This document shows, piece after piece, positions 1 through 23,889 of a DNA stretch of 26,780 nucleotides. Each line of letters starts with the position of its first letter. The first letter of the stretch is position 1. The notes under the pieces are model-generated. The model was not told where the DNA came from and ran no database searches. It saw only the letters and a program-made list of their open reading frames with translations. The stretch comes from a virus (Duplodnaviria > Heunggongvirae > Uroviricota > Caudoviricetes), in IMG/VR virus record IMGVR_UViG_2713897161_000007. One strand, written 5' to 3'. Position numbers and translations under genes: made by a program.

Positions 1-1002
1 TTACCCTCTATTGTCAAAAGGGTTCAATTCAACAGCAGCCTCTAAATGACCTGGAGCAAAATGCGCATAACGCATAGTCATTTTTATATCGCTATGCCCC
101 AGTATTTTTTGCAACACAAGAATATTTCCGCCCCGCATCATAAAATGACTGGCAAACGTGTGACGTAGCACATGAGTTAATTGCCCATCAGGAAGCTCGA
201 TCTTCGCTCTCTTAATTGCAGCGTCAAAAGCCTCATAACATGGTGAAAATAGCGCTCCTCGTTTTTGAGGAAGCATAGCCTGCAATTGAGGTGAAATCGG
301 TACAGTGCGGTTCTTCTTTCCTTTAGTTTTAACAAATGTGATTCGACCGGGCAGTACTTGAGATTGCTTTAATCCTTCAGCTTCACTCCACCGAGCACCA
401 GTCGCAAGCCCAATACGGACAACAACCCCCAAATCTTTATTCCGTGACTCATCACACGCAATCAGAAGGCGTTCAATCTCATCTACATACAGAAACGCCA
501 GTTCCTTTTCTTCCTCACGAAACTTGCGAATACCAGTCAGGGGGTTTTCACCAGACCACTCCCCAAGGCGCTTCAGTTCGGCAAAAACAGCATGTAGATA
601 TGACTGCTCGCGATTAACGGTTGCTTCACTAAGTTTTTTCTTCCCCTTGGGATTCCATTCTCCTGATAGCCTTCTTTCCCGATAAGTAGCAAACATATTT
701 TTGTCAAACTGAGAAGCAAATGGATCCCCCAGCCTGGAACAAATCGCCTCAAGTTTGACTTTGCGCTCTGCACCAGAGGACAAGGTTTTACCGTACATCT
801 CAAACCAACGAGCAATCAACTCAGAAAGACGAGGACCAGAACCATCTTGAAACTCGTCTCCAACTCTACTATTCATTAAACGGCGCTCATAAGAGAGCGC
901 CTCACTTTTTGTCGCAAACTGTTTACGAATGCGTTTTCCCGATGCCCCGTAGGGATAACATTCGCAAAGCCATTTACCTGATGGAATCTTACGAACCGAC
1001 AT
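1..1002 (-). CDS. int: Tyrosine recombinase / phage integrase, P2-186 family
   Basis: 333-aa ORF. C-terminal catalytic signature (TGARWSEA, RITFVKTKGKKNRTVPIS, HVLRHTFASHFMMRGG, GHSDIKMTMRYAHF) typical of P2-type integrases. Confidence 0.9.
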   Translation of the reverse strand: MSVRKIPSGKWLCECYPYGASGKRIRKQFATKSEALSYERRLMNSRVGDEFQDGSGPRLSELIARWFEMYGKTLSSGAERKVKLEAICSRLGDPFASQFDKNMFATYRERRLSGEWNPKGKKKLSEATVNREQSYLHAVFAELKRLGEWSGENPLTGIRKFREEEKELAFLYVDEIERLLIACDESRNKDLGVVVRIGLATGARWSEAEGLKQSQVLPGRITFVKTKGKKNRTVPISPQLQAMLPQKRGALFSPCYEAFDAAIKRAKIELPDGQLTHVLRHTFASHFMMRGGNILVLQKILGHSDIKMTMRYAHFAPGHLEAAVELNPFDNRG

Positions 1003-1007
1003 TTTAG

Positions 1008-1355
1008 TTACTTATCACATAAATCAAATGCAGCCTTAGTGACATCCCCCAGACTCTTTTTTAACCCTGGGGCGGCATCATTATCTAGCCAAAATGGATT
1101 ATTGTTATCTAACGGTAACGCACCAAATGTTTTACCTTTTATTCGAGCTAAACCTGTAAGCGCATATAACTTATTATCGTCAAAATTCATCACATAAGGA
1201 TTACCATCAAGACACTGTAATTGAACCTCATCAGTATTAAATGGCCATACCCCATTGAAACTCTCACGTTCAATAGTTTTAAAAGGCATTGCGACGGCGG
1301 AAAAAGAAAACATAGATAAAAAAGTAACTAATAGTTGAACCTTTTTTACTTTCAT
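1008..1355 (-). CDS. Secreted protein of unknown function (N-terminal signal peptide, two Cys); cargo in lysogenic operon
   Basis: 115-aa ORF with hydrophobic N-terminus (MKVKKVQLLVTFLSMFSFSAVA). Packed 5 nt upstream of int on the same strand. AT-rich relative to phage core. Confidence 0.55.
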   Translation of the reverse strand: MKVKKVQLLVTFLSMFSFSAVAMPFKTIERESFNGVWPFNTDEVQLQCLDGNPYVMNFDDNKLYALTGLARIKGKTFGALPLDNNNPFWLDNDAAPGLKKSLGDVTKAAFDLCDK

Positions 1356-1384
1356 ATCATTACCTCAATTTAGCTCAAGTAAGA

Positions 1385-2035
1385 TTACAAATTAAAAAAC
1401 ACCCTAGAAATGGCACCGCCTACCAAAACCCCTACGCAGATAAAGAATATTATTTCTTTTGGATAAAGTCGGATTAATTCTGAAGCACGAAGTCGAACTT
1501 CTGGTAAGGCCGAACTCTCTGTGTGACTTGATGCCGATTGTTGCTCTAACCACGACAATGCAGACTGTAACTGAGAACGAGTAAGATCGTTTAAACGTCC
1601 TGTACCGAAATTGATATGGCAATACCGCAGAAGTTTTTGTCGAAGTCCACAGTCTTCACTGTTACGTAGTAATAAACTTACAAGAGTCTTACAGGCATCA
1701 TGATCTTTACATCGCTCAAGCATTGCATGCAGAAAACTCTCCGCTGTTTTATATTGATTTACTGTCATATCATCAATACCAGCTACACCAATCTCCGCAT
1801 GTACTTTTTGCCAAATAATAAACGCTTCAGTATTGCTAGCTTCTGCAATAGCAGCAACCAAGCTATTTAGCTCCTTACGCTGAGCCTTAAGCAAAGGGCG
1901 ATCGTCATCATCATTATTCGAAGGGATTGCGATATTGACGGTATGAGAACCATCATATCGCTCTATCTGAATATTCTTTTCGTGAAAATCACGCCCAGCA
2001 ACGCGATTGTTTGAACCGTTTGAGTTGACGGCCAT
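1385..2035 (-). CDS. Tail-anchored membrane protein of unknown function (single C-terminal TM); cargo in lysogenic operon
   Basis: 216-aa ORF. C-terminal hydrophobic stretch IIFFICVGVLVGGAISRVFF. N-terminus carries NNRVAGRDF, echoing the repressor C-terminus. Confidence 0.55.
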   Translation of the reverse strand: MAVNSNGSNNRVAGRDFHEKNIQIERYDGSHTVNIAIPSNNDDDDRPLLKAQRKELNSLVAAIAEASNTEAFIIWQKVHAEIGVAGIDDMTVNQYKTAESFLHAMLERCKDHDACKTLVSLLLRNSEDCGLRQKLLRYCHINFGTGRLNDLTRSQLQSALSWLEQQSASSHTESSALPEVRLRASELIRLYPKEIIFFICVGVLVGGAISRVFFNL

Positions 2036-2050
2036 GTCACCTCCCTACTA

Positions 2051-2455
2051 TCACCTACCCTTAGTTTCGTTATAGTCACGACCAGCGATACGGTTATTAC
2101 CACCAGAAATATTTAACTCACGTCCTGATGGCTGAGTTTCCTTTTCACTGATCGCACCTTTTAAAGCCCCGATCACCGCGTTTTTCACATCTAACGAAGC
2201 TGCTCGAAAGCGAGTAATCAACTCCTGCTCATCATCGTTATAAGTTTCAGGTGAGTGAATTCCCAACACAACATACTGAACATCAAGGCCAAAACGAGAC
2301 AGCGCTGCCAAATACGCAGCATCAGGAAAGCTATCTCCTTTCTCATATCTAAGCTGAGTTAGCTTTTTGACTCCACCAATGTCGCTCATGGCAACTTGAC
2401 TAAGTCCCAATCTTTCCCTTTCCTCACGCAACCGCTGACCAATATCATTTTTCAT
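2051..2455 (-). CDS. HTH (XRE/Cro-CI type) transcriptional repressor, probable prophage immunity repressor (P2 C analogue)
   Basis: 134-aa ORF with N-terminal HTH (QRLREERERLGLSQVAMSDIGGVKKLTQLRYEKG). First gene of the leftward operon ending in int. No LexA-like peptidase domain. Confidence 0.7.
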   Translation of the reverse strand: MKNDIGQRLREERERLGLSQVAMSDIGGVKKLTQLRYEKGDSFPDAAYLAALSRFGLDVQYVVLGIHSPETYNDDEQELITRFRAASLDVKNAVIGALKGAISEKETQPSGRELNISGGNNRIAGRDYNETKGR

Positions 2456-2464
2456 ACAAAAACC

Positions 2465-2493
2465 TTGACAGGTATCTTTTTTGATACCAAAAT
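2465..2493 (+). promoter_or_regulatory. Divergent switch region: TTGACA -35-like hexamer followed by palindrome GGTATC-N6-GATACC (candidate operator)
   Basis: TTGACA at 2465-2470; perfect inverted repeat GGTATCttttttGATACC at 2471-2488 in the 75-bp gap between divergent repressor and early operon. Confidence 0.4.
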
Positions 2494-2530
2494 GATTTCA
2501 CGAGCTATTAGATGATCACAATATACCACT

Positions 2531-2737
2531 ATGAAACAAGTTCTTCACGATACCAGATCACGCATTCCGCGTAACACCGCCACAGGTCCAAGACTGGCAC
2601 TTCGGCTGTCCCTCGAGGAGCGAGCCGTCATTGATGAAATGGCAGCTAAAGAACAACGCTCATCCTCTAACATGGCGCGCATGATCTTCCTTCGCGGCCT
2701 AGAGCTAACCCAGAAAGAACAAAACAAATCTTCCTGA
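2531..2737 (+). CDS. Small ribbon-helix-helix-like regulator (first early gene; Cox/Apl/Cro position)
   Basis: 68-aa ORF; RLSLEERAVIDEMAAKEQRSSSNMARMIFLRGLE resembles CopG/MobC-type RHH proteins. No clear SD, so start uncertain. Confidence 0.45.
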   Translation: MKQVLHDTRSRIPRNTATGPRLALRLSLEERAVIDEMAAKEQRSSSNMARMIFLRGLELTQKEQNKSS

Positions 2738-2753
2738 TCAGGAGGCTAGTGGG

Positions 2754-2957
2754 ATGTCAGGTATAACCATCAATATCAATGTGAATGCCCCCTATGTATC
2801 CCTGCAGAAATATGCAGAGATAACAGGTATCCCTCTTAATACATGCAAAAAGATGTTGGCTGACGGTCGAATTATTATCCGCCCCAAACGCGCCAAAATG
2901 GAAAAGCCTGAAGTAAACCTTGTGGCGATGTTAAAAGACGCTTTGGCTAACAGCTAA
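2754..2957 (+). CDS. Small HTH DNA-binding protein (excisionase/regulator-like)
   Basis: 67-aa ORF with AGGAGG 8 nt upstream of the ATG. HTH-like segment VSLQKYAEITGIPLNTCKKMLADGRI. Confidence 0.55.
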   Translation: MSGITININVNAPYVSLQKYAEITGIPLNTCKKMLADGRIIIRPKRAKMEKPEVNLVAMLKDALANS

Positions 2958-2978
2958 AACAATGAACAGAGCATCATC

Positions 2979-3329
2979 ATGAAAAAAAACACTAATAATC
3001 CATACTCCAAATTTCGTAATGGCGTAGAACGCCATGTACACCACGTCGCTACCAGTGCATCACGTAGTAACAGCCGCTATAACCTGAACGAGACGCACGC
3101 AACACCAGATGGGCACGCTGTAAAACAAATCGGCGAACACACCTGGCTGATTGAGAAAGCTGGAATCGTGGTTCACAGATGCCCACACAATCCGTTTACC
3201 GGAAACCGCATTTTTGCATTAAGCAGCGGCGATAATCAGTTCGGGCAGGATTTCACATTGTACGAAGCACTACGCACAGTCGATCGTCTGCTTCGCGGGC
3301 AAAGTTTTATTAAACAGGCTGCTTTATAA
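2979..3329 (+). CDS. Hypothetical early protein
   Basis: 116-aa ORF, co-oriented and tightly packed in the early operon. Confidence 0.5.
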   Translation: MKKNTNNPYSKFRNGVERHVHHVATSASRSNSRYNLNETHATPDGHAVKQIGEHTWLIEKAGIVVHRCPHNPFTGNRIFALSSGDNQFGQDFTLYEALRTVDRLLRGQSFIKQAAL

Positions 3330-7898: not shown

Positions 7899-8858
7899 AT
7901 GAAAATTTACATCGACGACGGCTCCACCAACATCAAGCTGGCATGGACTGAGAACGGCGAACGCCGCAACGCCATCAGCCCGAACAGCTTCAAGTCGGAA
8001 TGGTCTGCGCCGTTCGGTGGCTCGCAGCCTGCTAACTACATGCTTGATGGCGTGCGCTATGGTTTTGATCCGGTCAGCGATCGCTTTGTCCAGACGACCG
8101 ACACGCAATACCAGTACAGCGATGTGAATGTCATTGCCATTCATCACGCGCTGGTCAAATCAGACATCACGCCACAGGAAGTGGATGTGGTTGTTACCCT
8201 GCCACTGAGCGAATATTTCGACACAAACGCACAGCCGGACATGGCCAACATCAACCGCAAAAAAGCGAACGTCATGCGCCCGGTGGAGTACCAGAACGGC
8301 GAAGCATTCACTATCCGTAACGTACGGGTTATGCCTGAATCCATTCCGGCTGGCTTTAAAGCACTGGCTGACATGAGTCCGTTTGAATCCCTGCTGATTG
8401 TGGATTTGGGCGGAACCACGCTGGATGTGGCAAAGGTTCAGGGGCAACTGGCAGGTATCAGCCAGGTGTTTTGCGATCCACACGTAGGCGTTTCTCTTAT
8501 GGCCGATGCCGTACTGTCGGTGATGGCCACTAACGGTATGCGCACCAGTCACCACATCGCCAATACCATTATCGAACATCGCCATAATGAAGCCTGGCTG
8601 CGCCAGCACATCCACAATGACGCGCATTACGCCAGCCTGATGGCGGTTATTCGTGAAAAGGAAGAAACACTGAAACAACGCGTGATCCGCGCGCTGGCGG
8701 TTTTTTCGGGTTACGGGCGGGTGATGGTTGTCGGTGGCGGGGCGGAGATTGTGGCACCCGCTATCCGCGAAGCCTGCGGAGTTAATGCGACTTTCATCGC
8801 GGACGGGGTGCCACAGTTTGCTCTGGTTAATGGGCTGTACGCAATGGACAAGGAGTAA
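7899..8858 (+). CDS. parM: ParM/StbA-family actin-like ATPase
   Basis: 319-aa ORF. N-terminus MKIYIDDGSTNIKLAW...ISPNSFKSEW and YSDVNVIAIHHAL match the plasmid R1 ParM signature. RBS AAGGA 8 nt upstream. Confidence 0.8.
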   Translation: MKIYIDDGSTNIKLAWTENGERRNAISPNSFKSEWSAPFGGSQPANYMLDGVRYGFDPVSDRFVQTTDTQYQYSDVNVIAIHHALVKSDITPQEVDVVVTLPLSEYFDTNAQPDMANINRKKANVMRPVEYQNGEAFTIRNVRVMPESIPAGFKALADMSPFESLLIVDLGGTTLDVAKVQGQLAGISQVFCDPHVGVSLMADAVLSVMATNGMRTSHHIANTIIEHRHNEAWLRQHIHNDAHYASLMAVIREKEETLKQRVIRALAVFSGYGRVMVVGGGAEIVAPAIREACGVNATFIADGVPQFALVNGLYAMDKE

Positions 8859-14105: not shown

Positions 14106-14744
14106 ATGAATCTGGTGATGTCAGATATTACCCGCAACAAGCTGGGGTGCTATATGGCGCAGCAGGCGTCGCTTAACAATATCCCGGTATCTGCACTGGT
14201 ATCGCGATTTACCGTGGAACCCGCGGTGCAGCAGCGTTTTGAAAACGCCTCAAAGGAAAGTACCGAATTTACGAAAAGAATTAACGTGATCGGCGTGACC
14301 GACCAGAAAGGCGAAAAAATCCTCCTGGACACCACCGGGCCAATTGCGCGCACGAATAGCAGTTATGACGGCATCAAACGCCGTAAAACGGTTTATGACG
14401 TGGCATCAGGGGACTCGTTATTTATTTCTGAACTCGGTCCATTACCGGAAAATGTTACCTGGTTGTCGCCGTATGGAGAGTATCAGAAGTGGAACGGCAC
14501 ATCCTGGGTGAAAGATGCAGAAGCAGAAAAACTGTTTCGGATAAGGGAGGCGGAAGAAACAAAAAACAGCCTGATGCAGGTAGCCAGCGAGCATATTGCG
14601 CCACTTCAGGATGCCGTAGATTTGGATATTGCAACGGAGGAAGAGGCATCGTTACTGGCTGCATGGAAGACATACCGGGTATTGTTGAATCGTGTTAATA
14701 CAGCGGTAGCAGCGGATGTTGAGTGGCCAGTCGCCCCACAATAA
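14106..14744 (+). CDS. Chimeric ORF: N-terminal ~90 aa of major capsid protein (gpN-like) fused in frame to the C-terminal ~120 aa of a tail fibre assembly protein (Tfa/gpG-like)
   Basis: Residues ~30-90 ([10 protein letters not shown]...[17 protein letters not shown]) match the P2 gpN N-terminus as remembered. Residues 94-212 ([23 protein letters not shown]...[11 protein letters not shown]...EWPVAP) match lambda/P2 Tfa C-termini. Junction near 14370-14385. Confidence 0.7.
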
Positions 14745-22749: not shown

Positions 22750-23889
22750 GTGGGAAACAATAAAGTGAAATTAGGAAGAAATGATAAGTGCTGGTGTAAT
22801 TCAGGACTTAAGTATAAAAAGTGCCATCTTGGTCGAGATCGTGAAACTCCGGTATCCAAAGCCGAGGCACTGAAATTTTCAAAGTCTCTCTCGCAGAGAA
22901 AGGCATGTTATGCGCCAGCATCCATGCACGAAGATTGTGATAAACGCATCGTTCAGGCGCATACGATATCTAAGAGCAGTAGCCTTAAGGCGATCGCCGA
23001 CTCCAGCAATCACGTCATGGGGGTGATAATGAACTTAGCAAGCCTGATGAGAAACAACGGAAAATGGCTTCCCGAGAAGATCGGTATCAATCAGGCATCC
23101 ACTTTTACAGGATTTTGTGCAGTTCATGACAGAATCTTATTTTCATGCCTAGAGAACGAAAAATTTACAGGCACGGACGAGCAGTGCTTTGCCTTAATGT
23201 TTCGTTCATTGTCTAAAGAAATTTATGCCAAAGAAGGGGGAGTGCTATCTTCTGATTTTGCTAAAAATGCCGATAAAGGAAAGCTACAAGTTGAACAGTA
23301 TTATATTCAGAAATTAATCGACCAGCACCAAAGTGGCTTAAATGCAGCAATAATTGAATTAAATAATCTTAAAACTAGCCTCGACCGCATCCTACTTAGC
23401 AGGCAATTTTCAGAAATTGAAAGTGTTATCTTCACTTTTGCAGAGCCTTTACCAATTGTAGTTTCGTCAATTCTTTCACCGGAGAGGGATTTCGATGGGA
23501 CCAAAATTCAGGATTTGAGCGATCTTACAGTGTCGGCGGAACAAGTATGTTTCAATGCTTTTTCCTGCGGAGGTAAGGGATATGTAGTGTTCAGTTGGCT
23601 GAGAACTTCAACAATTATCAGACGTTTTATACGGACACTAATTAAGATCCCAGCTAACAGGATGTTCAATACCCTTCTGTATTTTTTCTTCACAAAGGCC
23701 GAAAATACATATTCATCCCCTGAGTGGTGGGACAGGCTCAGTGATAAACAGCGAGAGAATATCGGCAACATGATTATGTCAGGGGTTGAATTTTTTGGCA
23801 TACCTACATCACAGGTTGATCATTCCGTTGATTATAACGCCGCTGCACTTGAAGAGATAACATGCAGCAACAACGAAATTTGCAGCTGA
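22750..23889 (+). CDS. SEC-C-motif protein of unknown function (N-terminal zinc-binding motif plus ~350-aa uncharacterised domain); cargo between D and ogr
   Basis: 379-aa ORF with GTG start. N-terminal LGRNDKCWCNSGLKYKKCH matches the SEC-C metal-binding motif. AT-rich, preceded by ~400 bp AT-rich non-coding DNA. Confidence 0.7.
   Translation: MGNNKVKLGRNDKCWCNSGLKYKKCHLGRDRETPVSKAEALKFSKSLSQRKACYAPASMHEDCDKRIVQAHTISKSSSLKAIADSSNHVMGVIMNLASLMRNNGKWLPEKIGINQASTFTGFCAVHDRILFSCLENEKFTGTDEQCFALMFRSLSKEIYAKEGGVLSSDFAKNADKGKLQVEQYYIQKLIDQHQSGLNAAIIELNNLKTSLDRILLSRQFSEIESVIFTFAEPLPIVVSSILSPERDFDGTKIQDLSDLTVSAEQVCFNAFSCGGKGYVVFSWLRTSTIIRRFIRTLIKIPANRMFNTLLYFFFTKAENTYSSPEWWDRLSDKQRENIGNMIMSGVEFFGIPTSQVDHSVDYNAAALEEITCSNNEICS

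Follow-up and report, generated by a model that had tools for sequence, protein, structure and literature searches.

A conserved repressor/Flk_N gene pair with matching protein termini and a replaceable gene before the integrase in the lysogeny operon of a P2-like prophage

In the lysogen of phage lambda, the accessory genes rexAB are co-transcribed with the cI repressor gene. Vibrio phage K139, a P2-related member of the Peduoviridae, has a lysogenic operon of the order cI-orf2-glo-int with a mapped lysogenic promoter, in which two genes are located between repressor and integrase on the lysogenic transcript, and annotation assigns its periplasmic protein Glo a part in phage exclusion (Nesper et al. 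1999, J Bacteriol 181:2902, as related in PMC4870250; NC_003313). In passages dealing with such loci, the cI-int interval of K139-like phages is named as a defence hotspot (Rousset et al. 2022, PMC9122126), and 8% of the P2 defence systems are placed between integrase and primase (NAR 2026, PMC13586616). Here, we describe the corresponding region of a 26,780-nucleotide (nt) stretch of Caudoviricetes DNA (IMG/VR record IMGVR_UViG_2713897161_000007; hereafter, the window, meaning the whole stretch), in which the immunity repressor gene of a P2-like prophage is followed by the gene of a tail-anchored inner-membrane protein of the Flk_N family (216 amino acids, aa), the gene of a secreted DUF2511/YebY-like protein (115 aa) and the integrase gene int. 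A preliminary description, whose span 1008–2455 takes in the repressor gene as well as both inserted genes, had regarded the latter as cargo of the lysogenic operon and as a plausible superinfection-exclusion or abortive-infection module. Its observation is confirmed and its interpretation partly supported: the 216-aa gene is the fixed partner of the repressor gene, with a terminal motif that co-varies between the two proteins, and only the 115-aa gene occupies a slot with variable content.

The operon of K139 is a direct precedent for the layout of the operon in the window; however, K139 has a 186/CI-type repressor (Phage_CI_repr + CI_C) with neither an Flk_N partner nor the shared motif. As with rexAB, the accessory genes of the window are predicted to lie on the repressor transcript in the lysogen, but there is no homology between the two systems, and RexAB is a self-contained abortive-infection pair without a motif link to CI. 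As far as the hotspot passages cited above go, P2-like prophages carry variable, precisely bounded slots of alternative anti-phage or moron genes, to which the slot described here is alike, but the main ones in E. coli are gpA-gpQ and positions within the tail genes. The keyword-matched passages of PMC9122126 and PMC13586616 single out neither the slot between the Flk_N gene and int nor its DUF2511 occupant.

The four genes are consecutive open reading frames (ORFs) on the minus strand. The repressor (2051..2455; 134 aa) is of the XRE type, with a helix-turn-helix (HTH) domain matching Pfam HTH_31/HTH_3 and the PHROG transcriptional-repressor families; it is followed by the Flk_N gene (1385..2035; PF27202, NCBIfam Flk, phrog_5825), the DUF2511 gene (1008..1355) and the gene of a P2-type tyrosine integrase (1..1002; 333 aa; Pfam Int_N + Phage_integrase). 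The same four coding sequences are annotated in the RefSeq record of E. coli O26:H11 11368, with which bases 1–2500 of the window are 100% identical, and bases 1–2800 share 98.3% identity with Escherichia phage 520873 (Peduoviridae, Xuanwuvirus). In O26:H11 11368, the element sits between yecA and the tRNA-Leu/Cys/Gly-pgsA cluster. The four genes make up the lysogeny operon of a prophage that is P2-like, defective and of the Sp13/CP-933T type, with yecA on one side of the insertion and tRNA-Leu on the other; the O157 copy is a Sp13/CP-933T-type prophage with the same block (99.3% identical) at the same insertion site, and has larger deletions. The exact four-gene block is present in 506 of 5426 complete E. 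coli genomes (~9%), the carriers including enterohaemorrhagic E. coli of the serogroups O157, O26, O111, O103, O121 and O145.

The intergenic gaps measure 15, 29 and 5 nt, the start codon of int following the stop codon of the 115-aa gene after 5 nt, and Shine-Dalgarno-like sequences (GGGAGG and GAGG) are present. A promoter/terminator scan detected no terminator-like site between the four genes on the minus strand and no enrichment of promoter-like sites in the region, and an Rfam scan of positions 1–3000 returned no RNA family. The close spacing, suggestive of translational coupling, and the lack of terminators are consistent with expression of the whole operon in the lysogen. The GC content is 0.353 in the 115-aa gene, 0.410 in the 216-aa gene, 0.442 in the repressor gene and 0.451 in int, in comparison with ~0.55 in the replication and late genes. 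Thus, the preliminary description was right about the two intervening, closely spaced and AT-rich genes, about P2, in which C and int are adjacent (115-nt gap, no intervening gene), and about operon membership; that the position is one for accessory or exclusion genes expressed in the lysogen was sound but already known from K139 and from Rousset et al. (2022), and known defence genes occupy the same slot in relatives.

The Flk_N gene is located directly downstream of a same-strand HTH repressor gene in every locus examined (>100 loci), comprising 80 IMG/VR contigs (80/80 with the pairing), nine further genera, Klebsiella and other E. coli, as well as nine distant metagenomic or genomic loci (L019–L027). 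Throughout, the distance between the repressor stop and the Flk_N start ranges from a 4-nt overlap to 73 nt. The pairing is kept both in P2-like prophages, with a P2-type integrase gene after the pair, and in Mu-like transposable prophages with an rve transposase and Mu Gp27, where lysis genes are present downstream; hence, the cassette is older than, and independent of, the type of phage that carries it. From these comparisons, repressor and Flk_N protein can be regarded as a conserved two-gene immunity cassette, the Flk_N gene belonging to the immunity side of the operon.

The pairing extends to the protein termini. In the repressor, an HTH domain (about residues 5–55) and a conserved helix are joined by a flexible linker to a C-terminal tail with the motif LNISGGNNRIAGRDYNE (residues 114–130; 2066..2116, minus strand), which precedes the basic end TKGR. 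At the N-terminus of the Flk_N protein, the head motif VNSNGSNNRVAGRDFHE (residues 3–19; 1979..2029, minus strand) matches this tail with a local score of 62 versus 20.8 +/- 4.5 in shuffles, none of 5000 shuffles reaching 62. The shared motif comprises about 17 aa; the head is conserved in all Flk_N partners compared, and the tail is invariant among repressors that are just 40% identical outside of it. Homologues of the repressor number 232, from Enterobacterales, Gilliamella and Pseudomonas. In distant pairs, the motif variant changes in both proteins together, as in L024 (tail QTFNAPISGGEFAARDIVN, head QEFNNQIHDGQFAGRDIVN), L026 (tail IFNGDISGQFAGNQIINNG, head EFNGTAQGQFSSRDIINIH) and L020 (tail QQFNGPVGTVTTGDVVN, head QQFHGAVEQVAAGDIKN), with a class-wise match in 17 pairs. 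Among the five loci with non-GRD variants, the cognate head ranked first in three, second in L020 and fifth in L025.

At the DNA level, the two motif copies are 72–99 nt apart. Their identity amounts to 0.75 at codon positions 1+2 and to 0.40 at position 3 (43 distinct DNA pairs), and DNA identity is not raised within loci (0.637, compared with 0.626 between loci). It follows that the likeness of the copies is held by selection at the protein level and does not stem from gene conversion, which is ruled out by the same two measures. A natural control is provided by P0373, a homologous repressor of 119 aa that lacks the tail and is found on 239 contigs: its P2-like prophages have no Flk_N gene, so that tail and gene have been lost together. 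In literature searches on membrane-bound antirepressors and on links between Flk and prophages, no earlier description came up, and the repressor/Flk_N cassette with its co-evolving motif appears to be undescribed in the searchable literature.

As a separate observation, every repressor examined for its motif class ends, after the motif and whatever the class, in a short Lys-rich run of basic or mixed charge, exemplified by TKGR (window 2051–2065), ENKK, GSKGKK, SNKKNK and REKE. The heads of the Flk_N partners have no counterpart of this end.

Flk_N proteins form a small family, with 132 matching clusters among 1.84 billion representatives. PF27202 (Flk_N) is precomputed for almost all of the 120 homologues listed, one of which is 99% identical to the 216-aa protein; the protein itself matches phrog_5825 (expectation value, E, 4e-102) and positions 20–149 of the NCBIfam model Flk (NF007987; E 9e-16), the latter with 58.1 bits versus an equivalog cut-off of 353. 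True Flk representatives are 320–410 aa long, with two Flk_N stretches and without the shared motif; the 216-aa protein, scoring below the cut-off and having a single Flk_N unit, is not an Flk equivalog. Its sole hydrophobic segment is formed by residues 194–216 at the extreme C-terminus (1388..1456, minus strand; Kyte-Doolittle 2.36), where the AlphaFold2 (AF2) model has a helix (residues 192–215); a signal peptide is absent. This transmembrane anchor is kept throughout the members of the family, true Flk included, and the predicted topology is accordingly that of Flk, with one C-terminal anchor and the bulk of the protein in the cytoplasm. The cytoplasmic part contains the helical Flk_N domain (residues 46–172; 1520..1900, minus strand), made up of two similar small helical sub-domains, and phage-type members thus combine motif, Flk_N domain and anchor. 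In its fold, the protein is similar to small helical modules that bind peptides, for instance the C-terminal domain of Red-beta in complex with the SSB tail; a profile of the 216-aa family had no match in the PDB.

With Flk (RflH) of Salmonella and E. coli, the window protein has in common the Flk_N helical domain and the tail-anchored, cytoplasm-facing position in the inner membrane. It differs in size and composition (about 210 aa and one Flk_N unit versus ~330 aa and two), in its extra N-terminal motif, and in being prophage-borne and always beside a repressor. Flk links a state of envelope assembly to the activity of a transcription regulator, FlgM/sigma-28, as reported by Aldridge et al. 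(2006, Mol Microbiol).

A tblastn search of 50,697 phage records (INPHARED) with both the 216-aa and the 115-aa protein and with a distant Flk_N homologue found only the prophage-derived 520873. This phage, whose name is that of its host strain, is present twice, as CP025923 and as the RefSeq copy NC_049344, and has the host gene yecA at the left end of the record. The Flk_N gene thus occurs in one phage of the collection versus ~9% of complete E. coli genomes and many Klebsiella genomes; plaque-forming isolates seem to be obtained only rarely from prophages with the repressor/Flk_N cassette.

The interval between the Flk_N gene and int is the variable part of the operon, with at least ten alternative inserts across prophages. 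Besides DUF2511 (window, L010, L080, L105 and L159), the occupants are DUF8087-like proteins of 81–108 aa, a 288–295-aa protein with an N-terminal BRCT domain, a 291–298-aa protein with a C-terminal BRCT-like region, a 244-aa membrane protein, a pair of a 117-aa Cys-rich, possibly zinc-binding protein and a 140-aa tail-anchored, probably coiled-coil protein, and ORFs of 137, 194 and 73 aa; in L088, there is no ORF of at least 50 aa before int. In Mu-like prophages, the slot holds PD-Lambda-5_A (E 2e-227) followed by the gene of a D12-class (Dam-type) N6-adenine methyltransferase (L024 1256–3569), the PADLOC TIR-TM protein (E 4e-103; L020 4990–5862), a superinfection-immunity protein of the T4 Imm type (Imm_superinfect; L027 3261–3671), or lipoproteins. 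These known defence and exclusion genes after the repressor/Flk_N pair mark a defence hotspot in transposable phages. The BRCT protein encoded by orf2 of K139 is a full-length homologue of the 291-aa slot cargo in Kosakonia and Enterobacter (33% identity, E 3e-51). Same-strand genes between repressor and int whose content varies among related prophages are the hallmark of an accessory slot in the P2 family, and they are found here. The tail-less repressor P0373 is directly followed by the 117+140-aa pair and then by int, and hence, the hotspot is defined as lying after the immunity gene(s) and before int. Consequently, the view of two inserted cargo genes holds for the 115-aa gene, whose slot varies, and fails for the 216-aa gene, which is universal wherever this type of repressor occurs.

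Two Flk_N proteins, P0172 and P0196, extend past the membrane anchor into a periplasmic domain. In L023 (4638–5165) and L026 (3597–4544), a homologue of this domain is a lipoprotein in its own right, whose gene comes immediately after the Flk_N gene (E 5e-19 and 4e-16). These fusions may be taken as a Rosetta-stone hint of coupling across the membrane.

Among the occupants, the Cys-rich/coiled-coil pair is itself a mobile two-gene cassette (117 aa + 135–163 aa), seen in L029–L033 (4357–5132) and also in L081, L096, L101 and L103, both directly behind the repressor that lacks the tail and, in other loci, in the cargo position behind the Flk_N gene. A tail anchor is present in the coiled-coil partner of L029 (140 aa), the single member inspected for it, and the pair gave no convincing match in PADLOC.

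The occupant of the window, the 115-aa protein, starts with MKVKKVQLLVTFLSMFSFSAVA, followed by MPF, and shows the basic n-region, hydrophobic core and A-x-A site of a signal peptide; this feature and the tail anchor of its neighbour, both noted in the preliminary description, are thus borne out. The protein scores 28.4 bits with Pfam DUF2511 (PF10709), above the gathering cut-off of 21, and matches phrog_2950. YebY, of which a crystal structure (7n0j) is available, is matched at E 0.003, with residues 34–113 aligned to the YebY chain by phmmer. A signal peptide and the cysteine pair of the YebY disulfide (C48 and C113 in the window protein), which is invariant in 14 homologues, are common to both, but identity is only about 25–30%. 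The AF2 model is of low confidence (predicted local distance difference test, pLDDT, 63); the top three PDB matches that Foldseek obtained with it were YebY 7n0j (E 0.05–0.2, template-modelling score about 0.4–0.5), a fold match that is only supportive. YebY is a periplasmic monomer resembling the lantibiotic-binding MlbQ and dampens the copper importer YebZ (PMC8689200, PMC11923076). In contrast, the window gene is flanked by the Flk_N gene and int, outside the yobA-yebZ-yebY (CopC-CopD) copper operon; that yebY homologues of Enterobacteriaceae occur between a XerD-type recombinase gene and a phage CI-type HTH gene has already been remarked (PMC8689200). All 46 IMG/VR loci having DUF2511 carry this phage-type gene directly after the Flk_N gene. 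To judge from its context, the 115-aa gene is real, replaceable cargo in the hotspot between the repressor/Flk_N cassette and int, and its GC content of 0.35 and the 5-nt junction with int would fit a precise exchange of cassettes. A search of PADLOC-DB 2.0 gave no match at E <= 1 for either the 216-aa or the 115-aa protein, in agreement with the earlier statement that neither is recognisable as a known defence family; what profile searches add is that the latter belongs to the characterised DUF2511/YebY family, with no demonstrated role in defence, and the former to Flk_N.

From the adjacency of the genes, the co-varying motifs, the joint loss of tail and gene, and the membrane-anchored, peptide-binding-like fold, we infer that the Flk_N protein engages the repressor through the matching termini, either by pairing of head and tail or by binding of either motif copy to the Flk_N helical domain. 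Such engagement would tune the available active repressor, making the Flk_N protein a membrane-tethered modulator of immunity and induction, and int would be translationally coupled to whichever cargo precedes it. Taken as a whole—a repressor/Flk_N immunity cassette, replaceable periplasmic cargo and a coupled int, with the Flk_N protein modulating the repressor—we consider this arrangement slightly better than an even bet. A regulatory input of this kind would be relevant to prophage Sp13, which is induced spontaneously and by mitomycin C with a repressor that lacks a peptidase motif, by a 'mechanism yet to be elucidated' (PMC2669165). For the cargo, the most likely role would be lysogenic conversion or exclusion, after the example of K139 Glo. 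Several points weigh against these proposals. The head region is disordered in the AF2 model (pLDDT 41–54), the L025 pair matches poorly (score 17), and in L021 the tail NRTAGENY differs from the head NRVAGRDY; moreover, the co-variation would arise just as well if both termini were recognised by a protease, an antirepressor or another third party. As to the cargo, activity in the lysogen periplasm as a small binding or blocking protein is most likely, as far as its family and its position go; however, there is no homology between K139 Glo and the DUF2511 protein, and the latter has no PADLOC match.

A third party is central to an alternative that we regard as unlikely, in which the motif is a recognition site for another factor and the copy in the membrane protein titrates or recruits that factor. 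Candidates would be proteases such as ClpXP, Lon or FtsH, or antirepressors encoded by the phage itself, by a satellite or by a competing phage. The situation would be comparable to the competition of lambda CIII with CII for FtsH, and it accords with the same motif being placed at exposed, disordered termini of both proteins, with the induction of Sp13 without self-cleavage of the repressor (PMC2669165) and with the P4 epsilon-like derepression protein encoded by the O157 copy. However, the motif varies strongly by lineage while host proteases are conserved, so that a phage-encoded binder fits better, and the window has no epsilon-like gene; no actual third factor came to light. Just as doubtful is the possibility that the matching G/N-rich termini are amyloid-signalling motifs and constitute a prion-like, SOS-independent induction switch in P2-like and Mu-like prophages. 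The Flk_N protein would cluster upon an envelope or infection cue, its head would take up a beta fold and template the repressor tail, and the repressor would be aggregated and thereby inactivated; in some cases, the part of the sensor may fall to the downstream periplasmic or lipoprotein cargo, as the fused P0172 and P0196 suggest. Amyloid-signalling pairs are known from fungi (HET-S/NWD2) and bacteria (BASS, bioRxiv 2020.01.06.895854; Bab/Agp of E. coli, bioRxiv 2024.11.07.622273), and there, too, adjacent collinear genes encode a G/N/Q-rich motif at the C-terminus of the upstream and the N-terminus of the downstream protein, with motif families that differ by lineage yet match within pairs. 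The 17-aa match in the window exceeds the minimum of 15 aa expected of such collinear pairs. In contrast, neither an NLR/STAND or other oligomerising sensor domain nor a membrane-targeting cell-death effector is encoded: an XRE repressor is here paired with a tail-anchored Flk_N protein, as opposed to a pore-forming Bell/HeLo effector with an NLR/TPR sensor, and the GRD-class motif is more highly charged.

That the membrane and periplasmic proteins form one superinfection-exclusion or abortive-infection module, as the preliminary description had it, is decidedly unlikely: the phage-type DUF2511 gene directly follows the Flk_N gene in all 46 IMG/VR loci that have it, the P0172/P0196 fusions show a possible functional link to a periplasmic partner, and K139 Glo is a precedent for periplasmic exclusion, but the Flk_N gene is also found with at least ten other downstream genes, several of them cytoplasmic (BRCT, TIR, PD-Lambda-5), and, in L088, with an empty slot. 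It stays with the repressor and not with the cargo, and as it is universal in the lineage, its reading as part of a variable module, already at odds with the lack of PADLOC matches for both proteins, is not upheld. Very improbable is an action of the 216-aa protein on the switch of host flagellar type III export, through altered motility or a block of flagellotropic phages as a lysogenic-conversion trait. Its homology to the N-terminal region of Flk and the same tail-anchored topology would agree with this, whereas a score of 58 bits against 353 and one Flk_N unit in place of two do not; nor would such a role explain the motif shared with the repressor and the strict adjacency. Furthermore, the Flk_N protein is very common in prophages of Klebsiella (P0096, 754 contigs), a classically non-flagellated genus. 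We hold it hardly credible that the likeness of tail and head is a functionless relic of local duplication, the 216-aa gene being kept by linkage to the immunity region. The short distance between the copies is of a geometry that slippage or duplication could give, but third codon positions are nearly randomised with positions 1+2 conserved, within-locus identity is not raised, the motif survives in otherwise highly diverged pairs and changes in parallel in both genes, and the tail is lost where the gene is lost.

Upstream of the repressor, a sigma-70-like promoter (TTGACA-17-CAAAAT; 2465..2493, plus strand), a consensus match directed towards the early operon, is probably Pe. It is followed on the plus strand by a 68-aa gene annotated as an Arc-like repressor (2531..2737) and a 67-aa Cox-like gene (2754..2957), both according to the annotation of phage 520873 and the ORF list and both without a Pfam match. 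The records conflict in this region: the 520873 record has the plus-strand Arc-like gene, and the RefSeq records of E. coli as well as metagenome gene callers instead give a 45-aa minus-strand ORF (2545–2682). From its sequence, beginning LSLEERAVIDEMA, the plus-strand reading as a putative ribbon-helix-helix protein is favoured.

Elsewhere in the window, a chimeric ORF (14106–14744, plus strand) matches the P2 major capsid protein with residues 15–93 and a tail-fibre assembly protein with residues 92–212, which implies that all genes between those for the capsid and for tail-fibre assembly were deleted and that the prophage is, thus, defective; the Rfam family IS009 matches 14509–14707 (192 bits), inside this region. 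Directly after replication gene A, in the classical gpA-portal hotspot, there is a gene for a ParM/StbA actin-like plasmid-segregation protein (7899–8858, plus strand; E 1e-80), which in E. coli O157:H7 EDL933 is followed by a 'plasmid partitioning/stability' gene; for a P2-like prophage that integrates, a partition module is unusual. At 22750–23889 (plus strand), between gpD and the tRNA-side end of the prophage, a protein of 379 aa is encoded in which only an N-terminal SEC-C motif is recognisable, and this may represent a further cargo position beside att. The EDL933 copy has lost its portal and terminase genes to an IS3 element, and the O26-type window keeps both. The P4 epsilon-like derepression gene of EDL933 (L162 25600–25830), put forward as an explanation for the induction of Sp13 (PMC2669165), was considered as a general partner of the repressor and rejected, being absent from the window.

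The repressor type of the window is spread over Enterobacterales and beyond, and how P2-like prophages are induced when their repressors have no RecA-cleavable domain is a question made tangible by Sp13 of O157 Sakai, which is reported to be 'remarkably' inducible by mitomycin C (PMC2669165). An ever-present membrane partner with a co-evolving copy of the repressor tail is a concrete candidate for control of the repressor, and the pair may exemplify signalling by matching termini outside the context of NLRs and cell death. As a cargo hotspot, the slot before int provides a short list of candidates for exclusion or defence, namely the DUF2511, DUF8087 and BRCT proteins and the 117+140-aa pair, and the shared motif of repressor and Flk_N protein points to an undescribed way of controlling a phage repressor.

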